DNA of 64,000 bases from a virus: the IMG/VR virus record IMGVR_UViG_3300036790_000811, positions 1 through 64,000 of that record, one strand, 5' to 3'. The position numbers were made by a program, and so were the translations under genes. Within the stretch, counting starts at the first letter, position 1. Every line of letters starts with the position of its first letter. A model generated the notes under the pieces. The model was not told where the DNA came from and searched no databases. It saw only the letters and a program-made list of their open reading frames with translations. This document shows positions 14,154-58,880 of this stretch, piece by piece.

Positions 14154-15920
14154 GTAGCCAACGATTTTCCGGTCGGCTGGGATCTCCCTGAGGGATTTGA
14201 GGACTTCCCGGCGGATGTTCAGCGGTACTTCATCGATGAGATGAACAAGCGGATGCCGAAGCCTCCCCGGCCGTGGCATTCGATGGCCCGTCCTAAGCAG
14301 CTTCCCCCGGATCATTCTCGGCATCACCTCGCTGACAAAAACGGCTACCGCTGCCAGTGGAAAGAAAAGGACGGCACCCCCCACGTCTGCACGGGAGATA
14401 AAGACTGGTTCATCTGGCTCTTTCTCGCCGGCCGCATGGTCGGAAAAACGATGACCGGCTCGAACTGGATCCTGGAGGAAGCCCTCAAGTACCCCGGAAC
14501 CCGGTGGGCGGTCGTGGCACCCACGTTCCAGCAGGTTCAGGAAGTCTGCTTTACCGGGGACTCGGGAATCATCGCGCAGGCGCTGCCCGGGGAGATCTCG
14601 GAGTACAACAAGAACGCGATGATGATCGTGCTCCAGAACGGCAGCGAGATCAAGGGGTTCTCGGCCGAGGCTCCGGAACGTATTCGTGGTTACAACTTGT
14701 CCGGCGCGTGGCTGGACGAGGTGGGCTCGTACCGGAATCGCGTCATCTGGGATGAGGCGCTCGGCCCGGCTCTCCGCAAAGGAAATCCCAGGGTTGTCGT
14801 CACGACCACCCCAAGTGGCAGCCCTCTCCTGAGGGAGTGGGTGGAGCGGTTCACCAATGCCGCAAAGAAGGGTGAGCCGTGCGACATCCACCTCACCCCT
14901 GCGCGCTTCAGTGAGAACGACACCATCCCGAAGAAGCAGCTCGAACGTCTTGAGGAGCAGTACGGCGGTACCCGTATCGGGCGCCAGGAACTCGAAGGCG
15001 AGATGCTGGAAGACTTCGAGGGAGCCCTCTGGAAGCGGAGCTTCATCGAGGACCACCGGGTAAACGAGTCGGATTACTTTGACAAGGCCGGCCGCATCAG
15101 GACCGAGCTGTTCGGCCGGATCGTGGTGGCAGTGGACCCGTCGATGACATCCGGCGAGACGTCGGACGAGTCCGGGATCGTCGTCGCGGGAGAAGGCGCC
15201 GACGGCGACGGCTACCTGATCGCTGACTGGAGCGTGCAGGGTACCCCCGAGGAGACCATGCGCCGAGCCGTGGCCGCCTACTACGAGTACCACGCTGACT
15301 GCGTGGTCATGGAGACCAACCAGGGCGGTGACTACCTGGTCAAGGCCCTGCGCGCCGCCGACCCGCATGTCCCTCCCCGGCTGGTTCACGCCTCCAAGGG
15401 GAAGATGATCCGTGCCCAGCCTATTTCCATGCTCGCCGAGCAGGGCAGGCTGCACCATATCGGGTTTTTCCCGAAACTAGAGGACCAGCTTTGTACCCTG
15501 GTTCCCGACGCGTCGCGGAATCAGCACGACGACCGGGCTGACGCGTTTGTCTGGGCGATGACCGAGCTGCGGGGAATTACCGACGGCTCCTACCTGGCCA
15601 CCTATGGCCACAAGTACTGCAAGTCCTGCGGTAAGACCATCCGGACGTCCGCCCGGCTGTGCCCCGGTTGCGGCAAGATGCAGGACAGCAGTGACGACCA
15701 GACCCCCACTGCCGGCAAGTGGGCCGGCGCCTACCTGAACCACTGCAAGAAATGCGGCGAGAATTACCCGCAGCGCTTCAAGAAGTGCCCCACTTGCAAC
15801 CCGACTCCGGAAACCTACATGGCCGCCGTCCAGAAGGCGTCGGGACAAGGGGGAGGCTGGCTATCCTATTCCGGGAGAGACTGGTTCAAGGGAGCAGGCC
15901 TGTTATCAGATGCGAGGTAG
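14154..15920 (+). CDS. terL: terminase large subunit with C-terminal Zn-ribbon extension (first ATG 14241; frame open from 14145)
   Basis: LAGRMVGKT, VVAPT, WLDE, VTTTP, GRQELEG, VAVDP, METNQGG, HDDRADA. Confidence 0.92.
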   Translation, partial: VANDFPVGWDLPEGFEDFPADVQRYFIDEMNKRMPKPPRPWHSMARPKQLPPDHSRHHLADKNGYRCQWKEKDGTPHVCTGDKDWFIWLFLAGRMVGKTMTGSNWILEEALKYPGTRWAVVAPTFQQVQEVCFTGDSGIIAQALPGEISEYNKNAMMIVLQNGSEIKGFSAEAPERIRGYNLSGAWLDEVGSYRNRVIWDEALGPALRKGNPRVVVTTTPSGSPLLREWVERFTNAAKKGEPCDIHLTPARFSENDTIPKKQLERLEEQYGGTRIGRQELEGEMLEDFEGALWKRSFIEDHRVNESDYFDKAGRIRTELFGRIVVAVDPSMTSGETSDESGIVVAGEGADGDGYLIADWSVQGTPEETMRRAVAAYYEYHADCVVMETNQGGDYLVKALRAADPHVPPRLVHASKGKMIRAQPISMLAEQGRLHHIGFFPKLEDQLCTLVPDASRNQHDDRADAFVWAMTELRGITDGSYLATYGHKYCKSCGKTIRTSARLCPGCGKMQDSSDDQTPTAGKWAGAYLNHCKKCGENYPQRFKKCPTCNPTPETYMAAVQKASGQGGGWLSYSGRDWFKGAGLLSDAR

Positions 15921-21800: not shown

Positions 21801-24014
21801 GCCACCGATTTCGTTCTGAAGGACGAAGAGGACATCTTTGAGCCGATCGTGGCCAAGGCACAGCAGTGGCCGGGCTGGGAGCGCGATCTCGGGCTCGTCG
21901 GTGCCTATAAGCAGCAGATTGAGGGAGCCTTTGCCGTTGCCCAGGCCAAGGGTGAGCAACTGCGCCACAAGGCGGCCAACGGGGGCATGTTCGTCTCCAG
22001 CTCTGCCCTGCGGGGACTCATTTCGGATGAGATGCATGACACTTTCCTGGGGGTTCTCCAGCCTCTGTGGAGCGAAGCGTGGCACCTCGGTTACGAGGCG
22101 GCCAAATCTCTGGTCACGGGCCAGGACGCGGACTTCGCCGTCAAGCACGAGAGCGGTGCGCTCGACGGGTTTATCGACACCCAGGGCGCTCACTGGGCGG
22201 AACAGATCGCCCGGACCGGCCTGAAGAACGAGAACGCCCGGACTGAGGCTATCGCCCGGACCGAAATAGCCCGCGCCGTGAACGCGGCGGCCATCCAGGC
22301 GTACCGGGACTACGGTGTCACCCACAAGCAGCTCATGCTTGCTCCTGATGACGCCTGCGACATCTGCAAGGATGCCGAGGATGAGGGTGTCATCCCGCTG
22401 GACGCGATCTTTCCTCAGGGAGGTCTTGGCGGTCCACTTCATGTTTCGTGCCGATGTGTCCCTGTCGCCGCCGGGATCGAGTTGGAGCCTCCGCAGGGAC
22501 ATCTCGGCAAGAGCCTTCTCGGGGATCTGGCTGCATCCGGTCCCTTTCCTTCCAGTGGGCCCGATCACCCCTACAGGCAGGACGGGCAGTCCGGAGCTGG
22601 CAACTGCGAGTGCGGTCATGCCGCAAGTGCACACGAAGATAAGTCCCGGCTTGCTTGGCTGCTGATGCGCGCCCGGGATGATGACGGCAAGTACCGCTTC
22701 CTGCTCCAGCAGCGGGACGACGGCACCTGGGGTATGCCCGGCGGCACGACTCACGTCGGGGAAGATCCGTGGGACGCCGCTATCCGCGAGTGTACGGAAG
22801 AAGTCGGGGACCTTCCGGGCATGACCGTGGCCGCCACGTTCCACCACGAGGAAGACAATGGCGCTCGCGCCTACGTCTGGATGGTGGACGTTCCCTATTT
22901 CCAGCCGAAGATGAACGGCTCGACTCCCGAGGAGACCCAGGGTGTCGCCTGGTTCCGGCGCAAGGAGATCGACAAGCTTAACCTGACCGGAAAGTTCCGC
23001 GAAGACTGGGAGCAGACGCCCGATATCCGGGAGTACGCCACCAAGAACCAGAACATGGTGAACGAATCCGGTGAGCGACTGGCGATCGTGGACTCCCAGG
23101 CACCGCTGCACGCTTCGGGAGCGCGGTGGCCCTACCCGAACCGGTCGCCGAACGGCTTTCCGATCGAGGACCCGCACTACAACCAGGCACCGGGCGAAAT
23201 GGGAGCCAGCGAGCCTCCCCGCAAGGACCTGGACAGCGATACCCCGACCCGGCTGTACCCCAGGGGTACCGAAGACGAGAAATTCCCGCCCAGGAGGGGA
23301 AAGGGCAAGCCCGCCAAGAAGTTCCCGGAGCAGGGCGACGAACAGTGGCCCGAGACCGAGAACGGCGGAGCGCAATCATCGTCCGCTCAGGTAGGGGGCA
23401 ATACGGGAGTCCCGAAAGCGGGTCCCGTGCCGGCGGTAGGGAGCGTCCCGGCGAAGACGCCGACTCCGATGGCGCCCCGGAGTGTTCCTCCGCAGGTTTA
23501 CGATCCCGCTGACGCGGTGGCGACGGAAGAAGACGGGGAAATCGCGTACTACCCCCAGCCGAAGCCGAAGAAGGGAAAGGGTGCCGCGAATTACACGGAC
23601 CCTTCTCCGGTGGACGCCGAGCACGTATACGTTCAGCTCGCCAGGAATTTCCCACCAAAAGCTATTGCCTGGGTTCAGCGAGCTCGATGGATCGGCCCCA
23701 TCTGGATTCCGTGGGATCGGATTGATACTGACGACCAGGATGAATGGGCCGCCTCCCACCAGCCTGAGCACGTGAAAGATTTCATGCGCCAGATCAAGGA
23801 TCATGACGGCCGGATCGTCCCGTCGGTCCTGGTTCAGGAGCCAGACGGCGGAAAGGCGTTCATCGTAGACGGTCATCACCGTGCTCTCGCCCGGGAAAAG
23901 CTGGAGCAGCCGGTGCTCGCTTATCTCGGGACGATTAACCCGGATGATCGGCAGGCGGCACTGGAAACCCATAGCGCCCAGGTTCATCACGGTGCCGACC
24001 ATGACAATAACTGA
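18867..24014 (+). CDS. portal protein fused to MuF, Nudix and ParB-like domains, intein-interrupted
   Basis: Portal region (PYGFPPIER, DEVRDRLDLPP); MuF IARTE...CDIC...PLHVSCRC; Nudix box GGTTHVGEDPWDAAIRECTEEVG; IVDGHHR. Confidence 0.88.
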   Translation: MADKRRVAAALKSIPGARPTMAPQSSGYGSASPIAAMMNQQNQFANSYGPFLPRPSQVFTDGAFGPMSPIQPVPVDNPPPGGEFADPRSWEYRVGWNLPTPPGTEGLKLASFQQLKTLSEKYCLAPETRVLCSDFTWRQLSDISVGDELIAFDEDPPARGLHRKMRFATVTAYDRITRPCYRVTLTDGRTVVASAEHLWLAGRDKADGSCACEICGKQFGRAQGLGVHRRQVHDIEGQWKHNNFGAWTVTAQLRPGSTIRDLGSPWEEDFSREAGYLSGVYDGEASLNIANGNHKGWGIGFPQNAGPVFDEVEAILKRKEYGFRIHGPGINDSCKHITISGMRDCFRFMGEMRPLRLLGNARKWIEGNSPSRAGCATVESVEFLGEREVIAAGTSTSTLIAEGLFSHNSVARACIDLRQQEIRGLEWEITMTKEAAKAYQNSHARMKDFGVRAAEATKFFKRPDPDYWTFSSFMNAMLEEIFVYDALSVIFRPKYGAKFGRGGRGLLGSDLDSLRLISGPTIRPLVDLHGNIPKAPGTPAYQQYLYGVPRSDYMSILRGDDIAGTVLAGSEYNEFTADLMLYAPYWPRRETPYGFPPIERALLPVIAGLQKQEYQLDFFSEGSVPAVYISPGDPNITPTQIKELQDALNGIAGDPAYHMKVVVLPPGSKVEPQKPVDLADSFDLLVQTQVCMAFDCQPAELGILPNVGSNQGGGGASAGAIRLGMQEARDIKSRKSTKPTLHFIASIFNYILQDVCGQKDMKFTFEGLADDEDQQAITDLGVQQVQNGIASIDEVRDRLDLPPWGLSETSEPVVFTAQGPIPFSMAPQLIANMQGQNGGSSSSGNSNNGTQSSNSGQRTSSSRTRTNQPSVRAGGQTKPNGSHQAPIAPHRESLTPAHSAASGAVQSPTPRTGGTPSRSSVAGSRKKAVEAEFGALKRHLRKGRLITTWETRHIPERSLSMISEDIANGLLIDSAVDRATDFVLKDEEDIFEPIVAKAQQWPGWERDLGLVGAYKQQIEGAFAVAQAKGEQLRHKAANGGMFVSSSALRGLISDEMHDTFLGVLQPLWSEAWHLGYEAAKSLVTGQDADFAVKHESGALDGFIDTQGAHWAEQIARTGLKNENARTEAIARTEIARAVNAAAIQAYRDYGVTHKQLMLAPDDACDICKDAEDEGVIPLDAIFPQGGLGGPLHVSCRCVPVAAGIELEPPQGHLGKSLLGDLAASGPFPSSGPDHPYRQDGQSGAGNCECGHAASAHEDKSRLAWLLMRARDDDGKYRFLLQQRDDGTWGMPGGTTHVGEDPWDAAIRECTEEVGDLPGMTVAATFHHEEDNGARAYVWMVDVPYFQPKMNGSTPEETQGVAWFRRKEIDKLNLTGKFREDWEQTPDIREYATKNQNMVNESGERLAIVDSQAPLHASGARWPYPNRSPNGFPIEDPHYNQAPGEMGASEPPRKDLDSDTPTRLYPRGTEDEKFPPRRGKGKPAKKFPEQGDEQWPETENGGAQSSSAQVGGNTGVPKAGPVPAVGSVPAKTPTPMAPRSVPPQVYDPADAVATEEDGEIAYYPQPKPKKGKGAANYTDPSPVDAEHVYVQLARNFPPKAIAWVQRARWIGPIWIPWDRIDTDDQDEWAASHQPEHVKDFMRQIKDHDGRIVPSVLVQEPDGGKAFIVDGHHRALAREKLEQPVLAYLGTINPDDRQAALETHSAQVHHGADHDNN
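19233..20090 (+). mobile_element. intein (286 aa) with LAGLIDADG-like motif
   Basis: KY|CLAPETRV...ASAEHLW...YLSGVYDGEAS...IAEGLFSHN|S. Confidence 0.9.
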
Positions 24015-24565
24015 GAAGCTCCTGCTTCCAGATAGTCCACCATGGCCTGCAGTCTTTTGATGTCATCTTTTACCCATCCAAGAATCAGGTTGCAGTCTTT
24101 ACAGAGAAGGCCTCGAATCTTTCCTGACTCATGGCAGTGGTCGATCGACATCCTGGCGGTCTTATTGCCGCATATGTCGCAACCATCTCCAGCTCGGCGC
24201 CGCGCCTCTACCTTGAGCCCGTCTGGGCCATAGATTCGGCGTACACGTGCGACTCGCTGGTTTTGGAGACTGCGTTCTTTGTTTGCGTGATGCCACTCCA
24301 GGGAGTTCTTGGACATGCATCGTTTACAGATGCGCTGTCGTTTGTCCCGGTAACGTATGTTTTTCCCGAATCCTTCAATCGGTTTTTCTTCGTCGCATCG
24401 AGTGCACGTTCGCTTGGTGTCGCCTAGCACCACGGGCGCCGGGGCTCTAGAGATGAACACGTCCCCATATGTCATGAATCTTCGATAGTGGAGTCGGCAG
24501 TAGCCCCTCGCGACGTGCGGCCGAACGCAGTCGGGGACATCGCATTTCCTTTCTTTTGGTGTCAT
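23987..24565 (-). CDS. endonuclease VII-like homing endonuclease (HEG2)
   Basis: CDIC...IDHCHESGKIRGLLCKDCNLILG. Confidence 0.85.
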   Translation of the reverse strand: MTPKERKCDVPDCVRPHVARGYCRLHYRRFMTYGDVFISRAPAPVVLGDTKRTCTRCDEEKPIEGFGKNIRYRDKRQRICKRCMSKNSLEWHHANKERSLQNQRVARVRRIYGPDGLKVEARRRAGDGCDICGNKTARMSIDHCHESGKIRGLLCKDCNLILGWVKDDIKRLQAMVDYLEAGASQLLSWSAP

Positions 24566-24602
24566 AAATTCAATCTTAGCAAAGAAGGTGAGGTGATGTA
24601 GG

Positions 24603-24925
24603 ATGGTCGAGAAGTCTGAGCAGACTCCGACGCTTAGCAGCGAGCATCACCCTCTCGGAAGGGAGGGCTTGTGGCGCACTCCAAGTAAGCGCGTTCCGGA
24701 GAAACAGCAGCTTCCGGCTTATTTAACATCCAGAACATCGCCCGCGCCCTCATGAGAGACCAGGGCATGGATGAATCGCAGGCCATCGCCACTGCCGTCA
24801 ATGCGGTGAAGCGCTGGGCGCAGGGCCATCTCGGGGAAGGCGGAGGCCAGGTGCACCCTGAAGTGGTAGCCGCCTCCCGTGCTGCGCTTGACGAATGGCG
24901 CAAGCTCCGGGAAGAACATCAGTGA
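24603..24925 (+). CDS. head-module protein interrupted by a frame break at TTA 24723 (recoded gene)
   Basis: MVEKSEQ...QQLPAY | TTAAC | IQNIARALMRDQGMDESQAIATAVNAVKRWAQG...; GAGGTG SD; ends in a GTGA overlap with the next gene. Confidence 0.7.
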
Positions 24926-40187: not shown

Positions 40188-40775
40188 ATGCCCTTGGTGG
40201 TGGTCCAGTCGTTCATCAAGGGTCTTCTCGACGGACTCGAAATGCCGTACTCTCAGCCGGCTGCCCAGACGTACGTCACCCCCCCCGATCCCCGGATTCA
40301 GTCTCGCATTCCCGCCATCTACATCTGGCCAGGGGAGGGCGAGGAAAACCGCTCCCAGGAACTCGGCGGTACGATCCCCCGCAATAGTGGCCCGAACACC
40401 CCTTCCGGGACCAAGGGCCAGCTGCACCAGATGAGCGTTTACCTCACCTGGTTCTCGGCCAATCAGGGCACCGAGGGCGACCCGATCTTTCCCGGGATGA
40501 TCGACGCGGTGATGAGCGCCCTGAGATACTCCCAGCCGAACCCGGCGGAGATTACCGACCCGAATACGGGACTCACGTCCACGGTCTACAACGTGGGCGA
40601 GACGATGCGCTATCACACAGGGCTGGAATCCACCGAGGATGAGCGCTGGCTCAGATACGACTGTCTTGTGGACGTGTCGGTCTGGGAAATTATGCAAGCG
40701 TTATCCGTTAACTGGAGGCGTGTGAACACAGGGACCATTACGGTCACAGGAATTTCAATTAGGAGCGTGATCTGA
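40188..40775 (+). CDS. tail terminator-like protein (likely natural end WEIMQA, then TTA at 40701)
   Basis: Lies directly before the major tail gene; IPAIYIWP. Confidence 0.65.
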   Translation: MPLVVVQSFIKGLLDGLEMPYSQPAAQTYVTPPDPRIQSRIPAIYIWPGEGEENRSQELGGTIPRNSGPNTPSGTKGQLHQMSVYLTWFSANQGTEGDPIFPGMIDAVMSALRYSQPNPAEITDPNTGLTSTVYNVGETMRYHTGLESTEDERWLRYDCLVDVSVWEIMQALSVNWRRVNTGTITVTGISIRSVI

Positions 40776-42149
40776 ATGGCCCTTACCGGCGGTGGCCTAG
40801 GAGGCCTTGGCGGGCCCAATATTTATCCGAGCGTTCTCACGTGGCTTGGCCTTGCGCGAGAGCTAACGGCGGGCAATCCAGTTCTTCCGGTCTGGACGCA
40901 CCCCCTTGACCAGGGATCATTCGAGCCCGAGGATACGCCTAAGTTCCTTCAGGACAAGGCGATCCGTGGCGCGATGACGGACCTGTTCTATGAGACCCTC
41001 GGCGTTGAGTCCGCCGCGTTCTCGTTCGGCGGTCCCAACTTCCTGGACACGCACGGATACTTCTTCGACAACGTCTTCGGCGATCTGTCCAGTTCATGCA
41101 GCACCCTTTCGACTAGTACGACTGTCGCCGCTACTCTCCCTGTTGGCGCAACGTCCATGACGGTAGCCTCCACCGCCGGGATGTCCACTGGCGGTTACAT
41201 TCAGATCGGAACGGCAGCCTCCACGCTGACCTCTTCTTATATCAATGAAGTCGTTCAGATCACTAGCATGATCACGACGGCTGTGACCTTCGCGAACAAC
41301 CCGCTCCGGTTCGCTCACACGGCAGCCACTCCCGTGGCTCCCTGCGTTCTCAGTACTGCTACCACCTTCACGCACCGTTTCGCGGCCCTGAACTCCCAGC
41401 TCGGCTACGGTGGCGCCTATGGTGCGCAGCCCCCGACGCACACTTTCACGGACCAAACAAATGTAGTCAATGCCCTGACGGCCGGCTACATCTCCGGCAA
41501 CCCCTTCGGCACGGTTCCCACCAACACCTACGGTGCCCGGCAGTACGCTTTCTCGTGCCTGAAGAACATCGACTTTTCCGGTAATGCGGAACAGCTGCTC
41601 GGCATCAAGATGGCCGGGGACAGCTTCTTGTCCACCCCGGTTCCCGCAGGGACGCCGCCCATACTACAGACGACCGGCGCCAGGCCCATTCCCAACTGGG
41701 CCGCGACAGTGAACATCCTGGGACAGACGGTGCCGACGACGACCGTCGGCGAGTTCATGGTGTCCTTTAAGCGTCAGACGCAGGTGTACTGGACGGTTCA
41801 GGGATCGCAGCAGCCGTTCGTCATCGCACGCGGACCGCTGACCATGGACGGGACGATCCAGTACGACCCGACTACATCGGAAATCCCGCTGGACATCATG
41901 CTCCTGAACGCCCAGGGTCCGATGAGCATCAACCTGAGCAATGCGAACATCCCGAACTCGGGCCCCCTGTTCAACTTGACGTTCACTGCTTCCCAGGTCG
42001 CGAACGTCAAATCCAAGATCAACCGGTCCAAGGACCTAGTGGCTTACGGCAACTCATTCGAGGGCGTTGGAAATGCCACAGATGTGGGTGGTTCTGGGGG
42101 TCTTGGCCCGGGAACCATCACATTGGTCAACACGGTCGCCACTTACTGA
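40776..42149 (+). CDS. major tail (tube) protein
   Basis: WLGLARE...FLQDKAIRG...THRFAALN; followed by the chaperone gene. Confidence 0.8.
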   Translation: MALTGGGLGGLGGPNIYPSVLTWLGLARELTAGNPVLPVWTHPLDQGSFEPEDTPKFLQDKAIRGAMTDLFYETLGVESAAFSFGGPNFLDTHGYFFDNVFGDLSSSCSTLSTSTTVAATLPVGATSMTVASTAGMSTGGYIQIGTAASTLTSSYINEVVQITSMITTAVTFANNPLRFAHTAATPVAPCVLSTATTFTHRFAALNSQLGYGGAYGAQPPTHTFTDQTNVVNALTAGYISGNPFGTVPTNTYGARQYAFSCLKNIDFSGNAEQLLGIKMAGDSFLSTPVPAGTPPILQTTGARPIPNWAATVNILGQTVPTTTVGEFMVSFKRQTQVYWTVQGSQQPFVIARGPLTMDGTIQYDPTTSEIPLDIMLLNAQGPMSINLSNANIPNSGPLFNLTFTASQVANVKSKINRSKDLVAYGNSFEGVGNATDVGGSGGLGPGTITLVNTVATY

Positions 42150-42721
42150 CGGTTACCTCTTCGCCACTGAGCGTAGTGCATAGAGCACCACCCCCGACCA
42201 AAGTAGGGCTTATCGCACCCCGGTTCCCCGCATCGGCGGTTATCGGTAACTCGTTTGGTTCGCAACGCCGCGCTGCGATCCCGTGCGCACTGCTTGCAGA
42301 TGCGCTGCTTGAATGAACCGTCGGAATAGCGAGCGATCTTCGTATTTTCTTCGGTCCATTCGTGATCGTTATCGCAAGAGGTGCGACTTGCCTCATAGTG
42401 AGTACCATGCCGGATTTCGTCCAACTTGTTCTCGCTGCTTGTTCCCCAGGCGAGGTTAGACAGTGCCGGATTCCGGCAGTCACCATCAAGATGGCGAGCT
42501 TCTTGTCCTGAAGGCTTCGGTCCTATGAATGCTTCCAGGACAAGGTGGTGCAGATATTTACCTTTCTGCCTTCCATCCCTGAAGAGAACTACCATCGGAT
42601 AGCCGCCGCTATTGCTATAGCTTGGTTTCAGGATGATGTTCCGTCGCAGGCTGAGAACGTTGCCCTCATCCGAAATCTTGTAGTACTCCTCAAATCCCAC
42701 CACTGGGCACCACTGAGTCAT
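42143..42721 (-). CDS. NUMOD4-HNH homing endonuclease (HEG4)
   Basis: WCPVVGFEEYYKISDEG...HHLVLEAFIGP...RHLDG...NLAWGTSSEN. Confidence 0.88.
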   Translation of the reverse strand: MTQWCPVVGFEEYYKISDEGNVLSLRRNIILKPSYSNSGGYPMVVLFRDGRQKGKYLHHLVLEAFIGPKPSGQEARHLDGDCRNPALSNLAWGTSSENKLDEIRHGTHYEASRTSCDNDHEWTEENTKIARYSDGSFKQRICKQCARDRSAALRTKRVTDNRRCGEPGCDKPYFGRGWCSMHYAQWRRGNRQ

Positions 42722-44511: not shown

Positions 44512-45000
44512 ATGGACCTCCAGGGACTGATTGAACAGTTGGAGGTCCTGAAAGGTGCTGTCGAGAACGCGGCAGCTCCTTCCGCGACGGCAATGGCGGA
44601 GAACTTCCGCAAGGGAGTAGTTGAGGTCACGCTCCGCCAGATATCTCATGCTCCCGGGCTGTACTGGGAAGCGCCAGCGGGCCAACCTCCTGCCTATGTT
44701 ACGGGAAATCTTGCCCGTTCCGTCCGGACTACCCCCGCCAGCGGGACGCCGAGGGCTTCGGCATTCGTAGCAGCCTATGCGAAATATGCCGCGCTTCAAG
44801 CTTTCGGAGGCGAAACCCGGCCGACTCAAGGCAAGTACATGCACTGGCGAAATTCCGGCGGCAGTTGGTTCAAGGAGCGCGTCTATGTTCCCGCCCACCC
44901 CTACTTTCCGCCTACCCTGGGTCGTCAAATTTCCGATGGCAGTCTCTCTAATGTCGCAGCAGAAACTTTCTGGGCTCGCATTTCTCCGCTTCTTTCCTAG
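44512..45000 (+). CDS. HK97 gp10-like tail-completion protein
   Basis: PPAYVTGNLARS...YAALQAFG...PAHPYFPP. Confidence 0.7.
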   Translation: MDLQGLIEQLEVLKGAVENAAAPSATAMAENFRKGVVEVTLRQISHAPGLYWEAPAGQPPAYVTGNLARSVRTTPASGTPRASAFVAAYAKYAALQAFGGETRPTQGKYMHWRNSGGSWFKERVYVPAHPYFPPTLGRQISDGSLSNVAAETFWARISPLLS

Positions 45001-45590
45001 GAAGCCCGGAGGGATGCGAGCCTTCTTTTTGCTGTCTCTAGATTGTTTGCTATAAGTCGCAGACGGTCTGGATCCTCTCGCCCCTGCCCTATCAATAGGT
45101 TGCATGAAGGGCAGGCGAGGCCTCGCCTGCATAGTTCACATGAGTACCCGTAGCGGCAGCATGAGTGATCGTGATCCATTACAAATCCACGAGGATTTAC
45201 TGTATCCAGTACCTCGGCGCAGAGGTAGCATCTGCCGTTTTGTAGAGCCAGGAATTCAGCTACCAACTCATCCCAGTTACGACCATGCCTGTATGACATA
45301 CCGGAGCGTGGATTTTTCTCCCGAAACTCGCGAGACTTATTGACGTAATATTCTCGATGGCTAGATACATGCTGGCGTCTTTGGCATTTTTCACTACAGA
45401 AGCGACGCGAACTACGTTCGGCGGTAAAGGAAATGCCGCAACGTTCGCATACTTTTTCGAGGACATCAAAACCGCGCTGCCTTTTTCGTGCAGCTCGGTC
45501 TATACATTCCCTTGAACAAAATCGCTTATTCTTGTGCGCCGCCTTGACAGTCTTTCCGCACTCTTCACAGGTGATCATCGTTACCCGCAT
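44997..45590 (-). CDS. endonuclease VII-like homing endonuclease (HEG5)
   Basis: QNGRCYLC...MDHDHSCC...RRGLACPSCNLLIG; FCSREC-type repeats. Confidence 0.85.
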   Translation of the reverse strand: MRVTMITCEECGKTVKAAHKNKRFCSRECIDRAARKRQRGFDVLEKVCERCGISFTAERSSRRFCSEKCQRRQHVSSHREYYVNKSREFREKNPRSGMSYRHGRNWDELVAEFLALQNGRCYLCAEVLDTVNPRGFVMDHDHSCCRYGYSCELCRRGLACPSCNLLIGQGREDPDRLRLIANNLETAKRRLASLRAS

Positions 45591-51825: not shown

Positions 51826-54800
51826 ATGGGATTCACCGCAGTCGGGACGATCTTCGATAACGGCAACGGGAATTCCACCTTTTCTGTTAGCCCGCAGGCC
51901 GTCGGGGACATCCTGCTCGTTGAGATCATCGTCTCCGGTTCCAGCAGCATCACCGTCACCGCTCTGCTTGGCGGCGGGGTGACCACGTGGACCAAGATCG
52001 CCTCCTATGCCGGGACGAGTAACGCCGCGACCGGCTCGGTATGGATGGGAACCGTCACCACGACGGGATCCGCCGTCGGGATCCCGACTTTCTCCGGGGG
52101 CACGTCCGGAGACTTCCTGGAAATGGCCGGACAGGAGTACTCCTCCACCACCGGGGCGATGTTCGCTCAGGCAGCCTACCTGGACACCAGTTTCACCGGA
52201 AACATGCCGTCGCTCACCCCGTCCGGGGCGGGACAGATGTATTTCTGCTTCGCCTCCGACAACGGGATCGCCTCGCCGGGAAGCACGACGGGATACGTCT
52301 ATCAGCTGGACGCCACCGGGAACGGGCTCGCCTACAACCAGAACTGCACGTCCGGGGTCAGTACCCATCCGGTCTGGACGGACGGCAACCTTTCTTTCGG
52401 GATTGCCGTTCTCATTTCCGGATCGGGATCGGGATCCAACACCGCCACGGGGTCTTTGACGATCACCCCGCAGATGAACGCCCAGGCGGCACCGGGAGGC
52501 AGCGCCCAGGCCGCTCTTACCGTTACTCCCGGGTTTCTTGCCGTCGCTTCCGGTGGTTCGGGAGCCCTCAGTATCGCCCAGATCGTCCCGGGCAACGTCA
52601 TCAACGACTACGGGCTGGACAATGTCCCGTTCACGGTGAACACGCCCGGCACCGGCACGATGCTCGCCGCCTTTATCGGGTGGAATGCCGCCGCCTCCAC
52701 GGCACAGTCGTCCGGTAAGGCACCCGCCGTCAACGTCACGGACTCGGCCGGCAACCTGTGGCGGCAGGCGGGCATCACCGCCGTTGATCCGCTTGCCCGC
52801 TGCGCCCTCTGGGTGGCCGACAATCCCCGGCAGACCGAATGGGTATCGGTTGCCCTTACCGGATGGGGATACTCAACCGCGTACACGATCGTGGAACTGG
52901 ACGGCGTCCCGAGTTCACTGGGGCAGATCTCCCTGGACTTCGTCTCCCCCGTCACGACCGACACCCCGGTCACGACCCTGACGATTCCCTCCCAGACGGC
53001 CTCCACGTCCGACCTGGTGCTCGGGGTGGTCACCACGGGAGGACCGGGAGGCCCCCTGACCGTCCCCACGGGATGGACGGGCATCCAGGCGGTCGGCGGG
53101 GCGACGTCCGGGGACGTGACGACGTATTCGGTGTACCGGCAGAGCTCGGCCGGCGCGGTGACGCTGGCACCCTCCTGGGCTAACTCCGTCCCGGCGTCGG
53201 GCGTCATGGCGGGAATCAGGATCACCTCGGCGGCTCCTGTCCAGCCGAACCCGAACTTTCCCGCCATCCGGGTGGAGGCGGCTTTCGGGGCGACCCCGGG
53301 CGACTGGACCCAGTCCGTGGACTACACCTATGACATCGGCGGCCTGGCCTGGACCGACATCAGCCAGTACACGACCGACGAAGAAGGCCAGTCCACCATC
53401 AGCGTCAAGCGGGGACGGCAGTACGAACTGAGCCAGGAAGAAACCGGGACGCTTGAGGTCCAGCTGGACAACCACACCGGGATCTTCACCTACTCCAACA
53501 CCGCCAGTACCTTCTATCCCAACGTGATCCCGGGTACCCCGCTGCGCGTGACGGCCTGGTTCGGCGGGGTGCAGTACCCGGTGGGATTCGGGTACGCGGA
53601 GAAGTGGCCGCAGGAGTGGCCGAAGATGCCCCAGTGGGGTTTCTCCCGGGTCACCGCGACCGATGCCTACGGCCCGCTGGCCGCCTGTAATCTCTTCTCG
53701 GCGGTCATTTCCGAGATCCGCAAGGACTCCCCGTACGCCTACTTCCCGACGACGGAACAGTACGAGTTCACCACCCAGTCCCTGGATCCGGTCCAGGCTC
53801 CCCTGGACGCCAACGGCCTGATCGCGGCCAACTATGCCTTCGGGAACAACCGTTTCGGGGCCTACCGGGACGGCTACGACCAGCCCGTGACTGTCGGTCA
53901 GGCGCTGAACCTGATGGGGGACCAGAACACCACCCTCGGGGCCACGACCTACACCGGCCAGGAGGTCAACGACAACGGGCCGGGGATGTTCTACTTCGAC
54001 AACGGCATCCCGACGAACGCCAGCGGGAAATCCTTCGCCGTCGAGTTCTGGTTCGCCTGGGGCAACACCTCCAGTTTCGCCTGCACGATGCTGTCCGCGT
54101 GGGCATCCCCCAGCAGCTTCTTCACCGTCGCCACGAGTACGACTCCCCCTTCCGCCGGAGGCGTTCTCACGGTCGGCATCAACACTCCCGCCGAGGGCAA
54201 CACCCTGGAGGCGGGATTCTTCGTCAACGGCACGGAGATCTCCGGGGGGACGTTCAACCAGGACACGTACGCTCCGCAGCACTTCGTTCTCAACGTGGCC
54301 GGCACGAACGTCACCGCCTACCTCAACGGGGTGCAGCAGCCGAACACTCCCTCGGTGGCGACGATCCCCATGATCCGGGCGTTCGCCCTGGGGCCGGCGA
54401 GATTCTCTTACGATGTTTCCGGCATGGTCGTCTACAACGGCTACAACTACATATCCGGCCACGCGGCCTGGTACTCGCACGCCCTCAATCCGACGGTGAT
54501 CTCCAACCACTACGAGTCGGGTGCCACCGGTTTCGTCGGAGACCCGGCACCGGGACGGTTCGCCCAGGTCCTGACGTGGGGAGGGCTGGGCCTCAAGCGC
54601 GGCGGAACCGCCTGGTACAACACGTACGGCAATTATGAGGGCACGTTCATGTCCGAGGCGTACGACTACGACGGATCCTCGGCCGCCGACATCATGAGCC
54701 AGATCACCCAGTCCGAGGGCGGCCGGTGCTACATCCAGGCCAACGGCAGCATTGTCTACGCCTACCGCTGGAGCCTGTATGACCAGCCGGTCGTGGCCCA

Positions 54801-55347
54801 GTTCGGGGACCAGCCGGGACAGCTGCCGTTCGAGAACGACACCAGCTTCGCGGTAGACAACCAGTTCATCTTCAACGTGGTCAACGCGACCCAGCAGCGC
54901 GGTCCTAACCAGGACCTGTTCATCCAGGAAAACAATTTCCAGAGCCAGAACCAGTTCTTCATGCGCTCCGGGATCAGCTACCAGTCGTACGCGATGCTGC
55001 CGTTCGACGTCAGCGACCTGGTGAACTGGTCGGTCGCCAAGTACCAGGAACCCCACGACCGGGTGGTCCAGGTCACCATTGACGTGGCCGGGGTCCAGGC
55101 GTCCAACTCGGCATTGTTCCCGACCATTCTCTCACTGGAGCTGAATCAGACGATCACGGTGACGAGAACCCCGATCGGGGGCAGCCAGATATCCCTGACC
55201 GGGGTTATCCAGCAGATATCGCACGAATTCGGGGCCGCGAGCTGGAAGACCACCCTCGAAGTGACTCCTTTGATCCCGGAAGCCAATGCCCTGATCGCGG
55301 ATAATACAGGTAATGACACTCCGGGATCGAGCTTTTTGGCGTGGTAG
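51826..55347 (+). CDS. minor tail/baseplate protein with LamG-like domain
   Basis: WTDISQY...VKRGRQYEL; FAVEFWF; SEGG. Confidence 0.75.
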   Translation: MGFTAVGTIFDNGNGNSTFSVSPQAVGDILLVEIIVSGSSSITVTALLGGGVTTWTKIASYAGTSNAATGSVWMGTVTTTGSAVGIPTFSGGTSGDFLEMAGQEYSSTTGAMFAQAAYLDTSFTGNMPSLTPSGAGQMYFCFASDNGIASPGSTTGYVYQLDATGNGLAYNQNCTSGVSTHPVWTDGNLSFGIAVLISGSGSGSNTATGSLTITPQMNAQAAPGGSAQAALTVTPGFLAVASGGSGALSIAQIVPGNVINDYGLDNVPFTVNTPGTGTMLAAFIGWNAAASTAQSSGKAPAVNVTDSAGNLWRQAGITAVDPLARCALWVADNPRQTEWVSVALTGWGYSTAYTIVELDGVPSSLGQISLDFVSPVTTDTPVTTLTIPSQTASTSDLVLGVVTTGGPGGPLTVPTGWTGIQAVGGATSGDVTTYSVYRQSSAGAVTLAPSWANSVPASGVMAGIRITSAAPVQPNPNFPAIRVEAAFGATPGDWTQSVDYTYDIGGLAWTDISQYTTDEEGQSTISVKRGRQYELSQEETGTLEVQLDNHTGIFTYSNTASTFYPNVIPGTPLRVTAWFGGVQYPVGFGYAEKWPQEWPKMPQWGFSRVTATDAYGPLAACNLFSAVISEIRKDSPYAYFPTTEQYEFTTQSLDPVQAPLDANGLIAANYAFGNNRFGAYRDGYDQPVTVGQALNLMGDQNTTLGATTYTGQEVNDNGPGMFYFDNGIPTNASGKSFAVEFWFAWGNTSSFACTMLSAWASPSSFFTVATSTTPPSAGGVLTVGINTPAEGNTLEAGFFVNGTEISGGTFNQDTYAPQHFVLNVAGTNVTAYLNGVQQPNTPSVATIPMIRAFALGPARFSYDVSGMVVYNGYNYISGHAAWYSHALNPTVISNHYESGATGFVGDPAPGRFAQVLTWGGLGLKRGGTAWYNTYGNYEGTFMSEAYDYDGSSAADIMSQITQSEGGRCYIQANGSIVYAYRWSLYDQPVVAQFGDQPGQLPFENDTSFAVDNQFIFNVVNATQQRGPNQDLFIQENNFQSQNQFFMRSGISYQSYAMLPFDVSDLVNWSVAKYQEPHDRVVQVTIDVAGVQASNSALFPTILSLELNQTITVTRTPIGGSQISLTGVIQQISHEFGAASWKTTLEVTPLIPEANALIADNTGNDTPGSSFLAW

Positions 55348-56018
55348 CGCATCTTGGAGTAGTGCGGATAGCAGAGACCCTTGCCATAGTGCGCCTTTTC
55401 GCAACCCGGTTCCGTGCAACGGCGGGCGTTGGGATTGTTTTTCTGGTTGCGATTGTAGTGGTTCTTGCACAAACCCCTGGCGTACGCCGCTTTCTCGCAC
55501 TCAGGTTCTTCGCAGCGAGGAGAATCCGGGTTGGATAGTTTCTCTTCTATGTAATCCCGGTGCCGCTCTCGGCGACACTTTCGACATACTCGATCACCCT
55601 TTTGGCCTATATACGTATTGTCGCTTGTATATGGATGACCCCGAGGACATTCAATTATGTTCTTGCGGATTCCATGTTGAATGTCATCGAGAAGGTTCTC
55701 TTTGTAGGTTCCGTATGCAAGATTGGAAAGTCTGTTATCGGCAGGATTTCCGTTGAGATGCCGAGAAACGATGCTTTTAGGTTTAGGACCCACAAAGGCA
55801 TCCAGGACGATGCGGTGCACGAGTCTGACTATTCCCCTTCCGTTTCGGTGAAGGGTAACTCGGAGATGACCGCTCGGATTCGGAGTCGGCCTAAGATAGG
55901 GCCAGTCTGTACCGCGAGGACCCTTGCGGTAGACGAGACGTTTCACGCGTCCGTAGTCTGATACTGCATAAAACTCTTCATAGTCCACCACTGGAAGCCA
56001 GCGCTCCTGATCCGCCAT
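55146..56018 (-). CDS. NUMOD4-HNH homing endonuclease (HEG6)
   Basis: MADQERWLPVVDYEEFYAVSDYG...VHRIVLDAFVGP...RHLNGNPADN. Confidence 0.88.
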   Translation of the reverse strand: MADQERWLPVVDYEEFYAVSDYGRVKRLVYRKGPRGTDWPYLRPTPNPSGHLRVTLHRNGRGIVRLVHRIVLDAFVGPKPKSIVSRHLNGNPADNRLSNLAYGTYKENLLDDIQHGIRKNIIECPRGHPYTSDNTYIGQKGDRVCRKCRRERHRDYIEEKLSNPDSPRCEEPECEKAAYARGLCKNHYNRNQKNNPNARRCTEPGCEKAHYGKGLCYPHYSKMRYHAKKLDPGVSLPVLSAIRALASGIKGVTSRVVFQLAAPNSCDICWITPVRDIWLPPIGVLVTVIV

Positions 56019-56051
56019 GGACTGGAGTGTAACACAAGGAGGTGATGTTAG

Positions 56052-58321
56052 GTGCCAATCTCCCCTTCCAGCTATGCGACGAACACTCCCATAACTGCGC
56101 ACCAGCTTTTAACCAGGATTTTTACAGCATAGATGGCAGTGCATTCAATGCCACGGGAACAAGCTTTCACGCTAACCGCCCCCTGCTGGTAGAGACTTTC
56201 ATCAAGGCGGGAGCGCAGGCTACCGCCCCTACGGGGGGAGCACCCAGCTTCCTCGGCGGGGTGAACGGGGACGCCATCTCGGTGATCGACAACGCTGCCC
56301 TGTACGGGACCGGCGCGGACGGGGTCGGCAACGAGGCGAGATTCAACTCCGGCGGGGCTGTTGCTCCCGGCTCGGCGGGGATCTCGGGCCAGTACGGCGG
56401 CTGGAACCTCATGTTCGCGTTCGTCCCGATCTCCAAGTTCCCGGTCGCCGGGGGCATGTACGGCGTGGAGTGGAACGACTCCGCCATCACCGGCAATCCT
56501 CCGGCTGACATCGGCTGCATGCAGCCCGCCAGCACGGTCTACAACAACGCCGGCTTCGCCTGCGACATGGTCGAGCTCGTCCCCCCGCTCTACAGCGCGG
56601 ACTGGGGTCCGTCGGTCTACGCACTGAGCCCGACCGCTACCAGGATCCCGCTGGTGGTCAACACCGTCACGACGGTAGGCCAGACCCCGCGCTTCACCCA
56701 GATCTGGACCGGCGTCCTGAACGGCTACGGCACGCCGGTAAGCACGGTGCCGTCCCCGATGACGGTGATCACCGGGCTGACGACACTCAGCAGCTCGGCA
56801 CTGAACGCCACGATCAACCAGAGCCTGAACCTGCTCAACTACCCCCCGATGCTGGACGTGACGGTCCAGTCCACGGCGCCGATCAACGCCAGCTCCGTGA
56901 CGACCGTGCCGTTCAGCAACACCCCGGTTGAAGACAACTACAGCGGCTACAACGTCTCTGCCCGCACCTACACGGTGCCGTTGTCCGGACTGTACTTCAT
57001 GCACGCGAACCTGATCTACAGCCCGGCCTTTACCGTGGGAACGGCGATCGCCGGGTTCGACGTCAACGGGGCCATCCGGTGGGGAGGGGCCTACGCGGCG
57101 ACCCCGAGTGCCAACCAGAACACCGGGGCCTCGGTCACCAAGCTGTTCGACCTGAACGCCGGGGACACTGTCCAGGTCATCACCGCCACCAGCGTGGCGG
57201 CAGCCTTCGGCAGCGCGAACTACAGCCACTTCATCATGAACTGGATGGGCGCGCTCAACAGCAGCACCCAGCACTGGAAGCCGCCGAACGTCACGGGCTT
57301 CCAGTTCACCGCCGGGATGCCCCCCGAGTCGGTCACGAACATCGTCCAGAACTCCTACTTCACGGCCGGGACGAGCAAGTGGAGCGGCTTCAACGGGTCG
57401 TTCACCGTGACCTCAAGCCCGGCCGCCGGGGCACCGTATCCCAATGCCGGCGTCTACGTGAACAACGGGTCGGCGTCCGGGGCGATGGAAGGCGGGGGGA
57501 CATTCCAGGTCGATCCCACCGAAGTGGTCTACCTGGACGCGTGGACCTGGACCTCGGGAACGGTAATCCAGGCCGGGTTCGACTTCCTGAACAGCGGGAC
57601 CTACGTCACGTCGGTGCTGTCCAACTTCACCGTGCCGACCCAGACGTGGAAGCTGGTCAGCCTGCCCGTTACCGCCCCCTCGTCGGCCATCAACAGCGCC
57701 TACGCCCGGGTGGGAACCCCGTCCGGGAGCGGTGCCACGATCCAGACGCAGGCGATCCTGGCAGGCTTCCAGAGACCTCTCGCGCCCCAGCTGAACGAGA
57801 AGATCGCCAACGACCTCAACTTCCTCATCAACCGCCCGTACCTGATGGCCCGCCAGACGACGGCAACCTCAGGGACGGTGAATACCGCCATCACGGTGCC
57901 GATGCAGACCGCGACGGGACTGATCCACAGCACCTTCGGGGACAACTACGGCGGCTGGAACGGCACCGCCTACACCGCCCAGGTTCCGGGCTGGTACCTG
58001 GCGGTCGAGGAAATCGGCGCGGCCACCCGCTCGACGGCGAATTCCGGCGACAGCCTGACGGCGGGCTTCTCGGTCCCCACTAGCGGCGGGGTAAACGCTC
58101 CCACGACCCCCCAGGCGATGCCGGACTGGTACCAGCAGATCCAGGTGGCCGGGAGCTGGACTTATCCCACGGCGGCGACGGCGATCGGCGCCTACTACCT
58201 CAACACCGGGGAATCCATCTCCCCCAGTGCGCGGTACCAGTCGGGCACGGCGACCAGCTGGACGACGGACACCTCGCACAGCTTCAATGGGCAGTTCAGC
58301 CTCATCTATTTGAGTTCGTAG
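56052..58321 (+). CDS. minor tail protein with a frame break at TTA 56109 (recoded gene)
   Basis: SD AGGAGG 9 nt before GTG 56052; MPISPSSYATNTPITAHQL | TT | NQDFYSIDG; C1q/CBM-like beta domains. Confidence 0.7.
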
Positions 58322-58880
58322 AGTTACCATGTCGTCGCTTTTGCATCCTTATCCTATGGCATTCGCGACATGTACGTCCTTTTTTCTCTCCGACTCGAAT
58401 ATAAGTATTTTCCTCGGTAAATTCATGATCTTTCAGGCAGTGAGTTTTTTGACTATTCTTCGCGGAGACGCTGTAGCTGCGAAGAGTGTTTACTCTCGAT
58501 GTAACCGCTTCCAAGTGATTCGGATTGACACAGAGGCGCACTCGACACAAATGATCAATCTGTAGTTGATTGTGAATCGGACCGTAGGCTATAAGAAAAC
58601 TGAGCCTATGAGCACCGCGTGTTACGTTACGACTTATAGAAAATACTCCGTATCCATCTTTTCCCACAGTTCCATTCCATATCCAGCAAGGCCCTAGGTC
58701 GGGACGATATTCTGGAACTGGACCTTCTTTATTCACTTTAGAGAAAAATCGATCTATCTTTGATCGTGCATAAAAGTTAACGCTTGAATCTCCATACTTT
58801 ACCCATCGCTGGTAATGCTTAGAACAGTAACCATAACCGTGGATCGGTGCAGTACATCCGCCATCATCGCCAAGGCACAT
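58302..58880 (-). CDS. HNH homing endonuclease (HEG7)
   Basis: CWIWNG...GYG...AHRLSF...IDHLCRVRLCVNPNHLEAVT. Confidence 0.9.
   Translation of the reverse strand: MCLGDDGGCTAPIHGYGYCSKHYQRWVKYGDSSVNFYARSKIDRFFSKVNKEGPVPEYRPDLGPCWIWNGTVGKDGYGVFSISRNVTRGAHRLSFLIAYGPIHNQLQIDHLCRVRLCVNPNHLEAVTSRVNTLRSYSVSAKNSQKTHCLKDHEFTEENTYIRVGEKKGRTCRECHRIRMQKRRHGNSTNSNR

Follow-up and report, generated by a model that had tools for sequence, protein, structure and literature searches.

A tail-fibre-like phage gene broken at an in-frame TTA codon beside a homing endonuclease gene: a candidate for short ribosomal hopping

How can a phage gene yield a full-length product when its conserved 5' end and its body lie in different reading frames? 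This question is raised by a tail-fibre-like gene in a 64,000-nt stretch of viral DNA (positions 1 to 64,000 of IMG/VR record IMGVR_UViG_3300036790_000811; hereafter, the window), which lies within a 76.5-kb virus record from a soil metagenome. A sequence-only reading of the window had ascribed the arrangement to a 2-nt slip of tRNA-Leu at CTT-TTA. We found that the frame is broken at an exactly defined position, at an in-frame TTA and next to a homing endonuclease gene (HEG), that this association recurs across lineages, and that a second such site exists in the same genome. Sequence comparison suggests that this is one gene read in two frames, probably through a short ribosomal hop, triggered by UUA and linked to the endonuclease, or a +2 shift in which pairing moves from CUU to UUU. 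Such a hop would combine a UUA bypass of the phiHau3 terminase type with an arrangement like that of T4 gene 60 and mobA.

The frame break and the homologues of the gene

The features of the locus, in window coordinates, are the following.

55146-56018, minus strand: free-standing NUMOD4-HNH HEG, divergent from the tail gene; its own part spans about 55328-56018
56037-56042, plus strand: Shine-Dalgarno (SD) sequence AGGAGG, 9 nt before GTG 56052 and 2 nt before ATG 56045
56052-56108, plus strand: open reading frame 1 (ORF1), GTG and 18 codons, (M)PISPSSYATNTPITAHQL, the conserved N-terminus, equal to the first 19 residues of the homologue P0002
56106-56108, plus strand: CTT, last codon of ORF1 and proposed take-off codon
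56109-56110, plus strand: coding gap of two extra T's, from DNA alignment against the intact genes of relatives L026, L001 and L003
56109-56111, plus strand: in-frame TTA, made of the gap TT and A 56111
56111-58321, plus strand: gene body, AAC 56111 (NQDFYSIDGS...) through the stop, shifted -1/+2 with respect to ORF1
56130-56132, plus strand: TAG, the stop of ORF1 if no shift occurs

The frame from GTG 56052 encodes MPISPSSYATNTPITAHQL. The body comprises 736 codons, is intact and contains no TTA. A long ORF of 759 amino acids (56042/56045-58321), in a frame other than that of ORF1, includes the body. The coordinates given in the sequence-only reading for AGGAGG, GTG 56052, TTA 56109 and the stop at 56130 all hold in the sequence, and so does its description of ATG 56045 as lying 2 nt from the SD with TTA as its next codon.

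A homologue search among 5.8 billion proteins yielded 17 relatives. All homologues called at full length start with MPI.PS..TN.PITAHQLNQD.Y..DGS.F...FHSNRP, that is, in the frame of GTG 56052, and a start of the type MLGANLPF..., the peptide encoded from ATG 56045, was present in none of the homologues found. The alignment of N-termini therefore agreed with the earlier proposal that the protein begins at GTG 56052. The closest relative, P0002 (92% identical), shares all 19 residues of ORF1 and continues with NQDLFSIDGS, a stretch matched by the body frame of the window. At the DNA level, the intact L026 reads CAG-CTT-AAC-CAG-GAT where the window reads CAG-CTT-TT-AAC-CAG-GAT, the difference being exactly TT. 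The UUA thus sits directly 3' of the last codon colinear with the homologues (CTT(L19)-TTA, 56106-56111), and the first residue after the break, N20, is invariant across the family. The layout of AGGAGGTG, 9 nt and start codon is common to the window and to the relatives L002 and L006, and ATG 56045 therefore falls inside the spacer.

AlphaFold2 (AF2) modeling of P0002 (pLDDT 72) revealed a chain of beta-sandwich domains with two helices between them, and the best Foldseek matches in the PDB were C1q and TNF-family head domains, with low TM-scores of 0.09-0.33; the model fits a tail fibre or receptor-binding protein. Megablast and tblastn searches with the tail gene against the INPHARED phages gave no match, and a scan of genome contigs for this gene recovered only distant C-terminal matches in Actinocrinis and Kitasatospora.

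The two extra T's are not an assembly error because an independently assembled Logan contig (run X1, from which the record probably derives) is identical to the window over 55000-57500 at a depth of 44, TT included, and because the relatives L006 and L030, which come from different samples and are 99.5% identical, share an insert of the same kind. The Logan contig holding this stretch is 127,718 nt long and extends about 60 kb beyond window position 1. The 76.5-kb record thus probably covers just a portion of something longer, either a larger genome or a prophage flanked by host DNA.

In the eight genes of the tail-gene family, TTA accounts for 0 of 4,988 codons other than those at the breaks, so its presence at every break is not due to chance. 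In a crude gene set of the whole genome, it was the rarest of the 13 codons tallied (12/19,039), with at least 5 of these 12 occurrences in miscalled stretches. UUA is thus exceptionally rare in the phage genes.

Recurrence beside homing endonuclease genes

Breaks of the same kind are found in two other lineages of the tail gene. In L002 and L006, a 4-nt insert that follows ...NQDLYTY puts the first 26 codons and the body into different frames. The site is 21 nt further downstream than that of the window; the inserts read TAT-TTAA-GAC in L002 and TAT-TTAC-GAC in L006, with TTA in frame at each break. No start codon precedes (V/M)FHSNRP in the body frame of either relative. L002 and L006 are only 63% identical over the gene, and in the maximum-likelihood tree the window, L002 and L006 belong to three separate well-supported clades. 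The N-terminal frame of the broken genes remains under protein-level constraint: of the codon differences between L002 and L006 in this frame, 7 are synonymous, the 8 non-synonymous ones fall mostly where the family is variable, and the conserved residues of the family are kept in the broken genes, save for conservative I/L exchanges. Around the leader and the break, L002 and L006 are 78-88% identical, compared to 40-65% in the neighbouring DNA, a pattern consistent with joint transfer of the element and the 5' segment. In three database proteins (P0009, P0014 and P0015), the call begins only at FHSNRP, as expected if their 5' ends are also broken.

The strongest contextual signal is that the break travels with an adjoining HEG. 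The HEG of the window (Pfam NUMOD4, HNH_3 and a Zn finger; PHROG 1492, E 1.7e-54) starts 33 nt from GTG 56052. In L006, a 167-aa HEG that is 54% identical to it (E 2e-59) occupies the same place in the same orientation, and L002 retains about 16 nt of the 3' end and 12 nt of the 5' end of the HEG, the remainder having been lost through an internal deletion. In the intact L001, L003, L026 and L031, only 5-13 nt separate the ...LSW-stop of the upstream gene from the start codon (28 nt in L009). Thus, a HEG or its remnant lies directly upstream in three of three independent broken lineages, compared to none of six intact ones. The relatives X3 and X4 have 146 nt in place of 55326-56161, a net lack of 690 nt, and are therefore free of both the nuclease gene and the break; the intact P0002 probably comes from X3.

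The edges of the element show further peculiarities. At the insertion edge, the HEG ORF lacks a stop codon of its own; it extends for about 67 codons (55146-55327) into the upstream tail gene (51826-55347), antisense to the 3' end of that gene. In L002 (2842-2850) and L006 (2374-2382), ...YLSW of the upstream tail gene is followed by TTA in place of a stop, a TTA that corresponds, on the opposite strand, to the TAA stop of the inserted HEG. Reading in the upstream ORF consequently continues for 38 codons in L002 and 131 codons in L006, unless UUA acts as a de facto end; the intact relatives have TGA, TAA or TAG after ...LSW.

A second broken gene, likewise with a HEG nearby, is encoded at 24.7 kb.

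23987-24565, minus strand: Endonuclease VII/HNH-type HEG, divergent (Pfam Endonuclease_7, E 2.4e-18; PHROG 2633)
24603-24722, plus strand: second broken gene, part 1, ATG ... KQQLPAY, last codon TAT, from tblastn with the ORFs of L066 and L068
24723-24727, plus strand: 5-nt gap TTAAC, TTA in frame; context (T-TTA-AC) and frame change as at 56109
24728-24925, plus strand: second broken gene, part 2, IQNIARALMRDQG...EEHQ and stop

Without a shift, the part-1 frame from ATG 24603 stops at 24753. The tblastn search placed the two parts at 24606-24725 and 24728-24922. The gap is taken to be the 5 nt TTAAC because four homologues (L066-L069) join LP(A/N)Y directly to (I/V/L)(E/Q)N; UUA again lies directly 3' of the last colinear codon (TAT-TTA, 24720-24725). 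The gap is 158 nt from the start of the Endonuclease VII-type HEG. Part 2 resembles N-terminal or internal domains of large head-module proteins from Streptomyces and Microbacterium phages. That the two breaks share the context T-TTA-AC had been pointed out in the sequence-only reading, and 56109 and 24723 indeed proved to be the only two TTTAAC sites on the plus strand of the window, each of them a frame break. The exact 9-mer AGGTGATGT also occurs twice in the window, at 24591-24599 and 56040-56048, where it makes up SD plus spacer in each of the broken genes; extended, both leaders match AGGTGATGT(T)AGG(A)TG. This shared leader may have been brought in by the elements themselves, as parts of cassettes.

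How the break may be read

Under the probable scenario of a UUA-triggered hop, ribosomes would start at GTG 56052, make the conserved 19-residue N-terminus and reach CUU, at which point the A site would expose the very rare UUA. With the A site empty, peptidyl-tRNA-Leu could slide two bases along CUUUU, from CUU to UUU, where its GAG anticodon would pair via G-U, re-pairing of a kind known from prfB. A single +1 step would put UAA in the A site, and this stop codon could drive the second step. Decoding would resume at AAC, with the junction ...ITAHQL-NQDFYSIDGSAFNATGTSFHANR and a product (...AHQL-NQDFYS...) colinear with all homologues; ribosomes that decode UUA as leucine would stop seven codons later. 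A 2-nt skip, from CUU to AAC, is the sole path to a product exactly colinear with the homologues (AHQL-NQD). Accordingly, the part of the original proposal that concerns the product ITAHQL-NQDFYS of a +2 slip at CTT-TTA is borne out by exact colinearity; the slip as such is to be read conditionally, given the possible -1 shift (AHQLLNQD) and the 5-nt skip at 24723. The match to internal repeats of the protein (LSSSALNAT, LAPQLNEK) that had been invoked in its support is only a loose resemblance and is not needed for the conclusion. At both window sites, an extra frame-changing block is absent from uninterrupted homologues, namely 2 nt compared to L026, L001 and L003, and 5 nt compared to L066-L069. 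Re-pairing across the 4-nt insert would be perfect in L006 (UAU to UAC) and would involve two of three positions in L002 (UAU to UAA).

Rather than a random lesion, the two extra T's would be part of a mobile unit that consists of the upstream NUMOD4-HNH HEG and a TTA-led mini-insert. Placed in the conserved 5' end of the target gene, such a mini-insert most likely spoils the cutting site of the nuclease itself while the protein remains unchanged, and only inserts that can be skipped, those led by a hungry codon, would survive. We favor this interpretation of the insert as an immunity mark because two unrelated HEG families are involved, all four inserts are TTA-led, and a 'hit and run' remnant is found, in parallel with T4 mobA and gene 60.

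Several observations weigh against a hop. No stimulatory RNA structure was detected in six folded stretches around the four sites (z-scores between -1.0 and +1.2), and neither window site has an internal (GGAGG-like) SD just 5' of it. The CUU to UUU transition pairs via G-U alone, and at 24723 either transition, UAU to UUU or to AAC, pairs at two of three positions. Given that the same motif needs a 2-nt skip at 56109 and a 5-nt skip at 24723, one simple rule fails to account for both. An open alternative start, ATG 56045, is available in the body frame. Furthermore, UUA can probably be read as a sense codon because in-frame TTA also occurs in apparently ordinary genes, at 15903 (5 codons before the stop of the gene at 14241-15920) and at 40701 (24 codons before the stop of the gene at 40188-40775), both in the context G-TTA-TC. 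Finally, the late region contains three further free-standing endonuclease genes:

42143-42721, minus strand: NUMOD4-HNH_3
44997-45590, minus strand: Endo VII
58302-58880, minus strand: HNH_3

No T-TTA-A/C site was found within about 250 nt downstream of the starts of these three HEGs; the TTA gap is evidently not obligatory. A heuristic survey of the surroundings of 80 further members of the HEG family in IMG/VR identified TTA breaks only in the known L006 contig and in one false positive (L106), with no excess of TTA over control codons. A query with the single HEG protein found nothing, and a GC3-based genome-wide search for more TTA frame switches yielded false positives at 27650 and 64472.

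If there is no recoding at all, the TT would be a tolerated endonuclease scar or a recent mutation, and translation would start at ATG 56045 or GTG 56042, producing a foreign 22-residue N-terminus; in L002 and L006, the start would be the codon before FHSNRP. The body frame is indeed open back to 56042 and includes ATG 56045, but this codon lies 2 nt from the SD, inside a spacer that is conserved in the family, and the resulting MLGANLPF N-terminus is seen in no homologue. The AF2 monomer model of P0002 assigns low confidence to residues 1-41, which may form a flexible arm, so that there is no structural argument that the N-terminus is needed. The insertion may also be young, given that the closest HEG-less relative is 92% identical. 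Nevertheless, an absence of recoding leaves unexplained the in-frame TTA at every independent break, against 0/4,988 in the family, the N-terminal frame of L002 and L006 that is conserved through synonymous changes, and the same motif in a second gene of the same genome; we consider it unlikely.

The main mechanistic rival is a -1 shift, in which tRNA-Leu(UAA) would read UUA as leucine and slip from UUA to UUU, with AAC as the next codon, to give ...AHQL-L-NQD..., one residue longer. U-UUA is a known slippery context for this tRNA, as in HIV-1 U UUU UUA and coronavirus U UUA AAC, and at either site of the window U-UUA-AC is present and an identical -1/+2 change is required. Canonical -1 programmed frameshifting, however, needs an X XXY YYZ heptamer and a downstream structure: neither G-CUU-UUA nor C-UAU-UUA is such a heptamer, and folding revealed no structure downstream. 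The shift would add one residue to an ungapped, nearly invariant motif, and two residues at 24723. It also fails in L002 and L006, which need +1/+4 at U-UUA-A/C, the +1 frame of L002 containing TAA, and in phiHau3 bypass was found rather than a 1-nt shift. A -1 shift therefore appears improbable.

An artefact of sequencing or assembly, or a dead gene in a defective phage, is very unlikely: although the record is a metagenome assembly and the comparison was made at the level of contigs, the independent assembly agrees fully at 44x, an insertion of 2 nt within just four T's is atypical of Illumina errors, L006 and L030 carry the analogous insert in separate samples, and the remaining 736-codon body is intact and free of TTA.

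Two other explanations were considered and rejected: transcriptional slippage, because the T runs are only 3-4 long, and fill-in of a nuclease overhang by non-homologous end joining, because three of the four sites show no tandem duplication and the HEGs concerned belong to two unrelated families. A shifter tRNA encoded by the phage itself was likewise rejected. The phage encodes tRNAs Arg-TCT, Met and Thr-CGT along with odd tRNA-like modules, and no UAA anticodon is present among its own tRNAs; no tRNA genes were found in the contigs of the relatives. The odd modules lie outside the window and include a type-II tRNA-like gene on the minus strand (genome positions 74874-74961; L064:10874-10961) and a second tRNA-like element at 75103-75173. 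The anticodon loop of the type-II gene, CCUUGAAA, has 8 nt according to Infernal and 6 nt according to ARAGORN, and with 8 nt it is unable to pair with UUA. A below-threshold match to YrlA (Y RNA-like; E 5e-6) is located at 74578-74699. A hop triggered by UUA may depend on the UUA-reading tRNA of the host.

Relation to known systems and implications

To our knowledge, natural programmed bypassing is limited to very few cases, namely T4 gene 60 and its relatives, a yeast mitochondrion and the phiHau3 terminase. The UUA bypass in the large terminase gene of the Streptomyces phage phiHau3, and of the prophages StrepC.1 and that of S. catenulae, was proposed by Smith et al. 2013 and tested by Antonov et al. 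2023 (PMC10732093). The phiHau3 gene contains two 10-nt UUA-led inserts and the two prophages one each, of 7 nt in S. catenulae; a full-length product was obtained in Streptomyces, and a junction peptide identified by mass spectrometry proved bypass in E. coli after replacement of UUA with UAA; a flanking stem-loop and an internal SD are proposed stimulators, not proven ones (PMC10732093). In the phiHau3 record, the sites read GGC-TTA-CTCCGGT-AAG and TCT-TTA-ACGGTCC-ACG, the latter being that of g7/g8, where TCT-TTA-AC has the same T-TTA-AC context as the window sites. As in the window, a very rare in-frame UUA comes directly after the last conserved codon and heads a short frame-shifting block, the flanking residues are colinear with uninterrupted homologues, and the phage is of the high-GC actinophage type. 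The differences are that the gap is 7-10 nt in phiHau3 but 2 nt here (5 nt at 24723 and 4 nt in the relatives), the frame change is +1 rather than +2, and the take-off and landing codons are synonymous (GGC/GGT, TCT/TCC), unlike CUU/UUU. Folding detected no stem-loop or SD of the phiHau3 type flanking the window sites. The gene in phiHau3 is a terminase and no HEG adjoins its sites, whereas here the gaps sit beside HEGs in genes for a tail fibre and a small head-module protein.

The HEG linkage is paralleled by T4 gene 60, whose 50-nt bypass is said to lie within the mobile mobA HNH element, according to work attributed to Huang (1988) and Bonocora (2011). The mobA/gene 60 cassette has been discussed in a preprint by Manning and Atkins (10.1101/2022.08.31.505936). 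In both cases, a free-standing HNH gene and an untranslated insert in a conserved neighbour travel together, relatives without the nuclease lack the insert, insertions have occurred repeatedly in different lineages, a 'hit and run' remnant is found (here, in L002), and a poorly decoded codon occupies the A site at take-off. The T4 gap is, however, 50 nt long as against 2-5 nt, and no counterpart of the GGA/GGA pair, the nascent-peptide signal, the stem-loop or the SD in the gap is evident here; the HEG family of T4 differs from the NUMOD4-HNH_3 and Endo VII-like families, and the host type here is an actinobacterium. The window locus is therefore an analogue of T4 mobA/gene 60, not a member or homologue of it, because the gap is 2-5 nt, no structure was found, and the hungry codon is the sole feature shared with the T4 bypass signals.

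The slide itself has its closest likeness in the +1 frameshift of prfB (RF2) at CUU-UGA-C, which Weiss et al. reportedly described in 1987 together with low-level +2/+5/+6 hops in E. coli. There, as proposed here, peptidyl-tRNA-Leu on CUU re-pairs on the overlapping UUU with a slow codon in the A site. The net shift in prfB is +1 rather than +2, the slow codon here is the sense codon UUA, and no SD lies 3 nt upstream.

One practical consequence concerns annotation: broken genes of this kind are routinely miscalled, with the N-terminus lost or the wrong start chosen, as in P0009, P0014, P0015 and the 759-aa ORF of the window. As to the elements, we put forward, tentatively and as something more doubtful than the hop itself, that homing endonucleases of soil actinophages spread as two-part cassettes, a nuclease gene accompanied by an 'immunity mark', 2-5 nt long and TTA-led, at the conserved 5' end of the adjoining essential gene, the mark being tolerated only through hopping under a shortage of tRNA-Leu(UAA). 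The synthesis of tail fibres and other components of the virion might then, as a by-product, depend on the bldA-like developmental state of the host, and CUUUU might be the shortest natural programmed hop.

The locus joins two phage cases, with a rare-codon trigger as in phiHau3 and a homing-endonuclease linkage as in T4 gene 60, and its gaps are minimal (2-5 nt) and lie in genes for components of the virion. It could serve as a model for how a selfish nuclease masks its target site without altering the protein, and it suggests a route by which a phage may tie virion assembly to the supply of one host tRNA.

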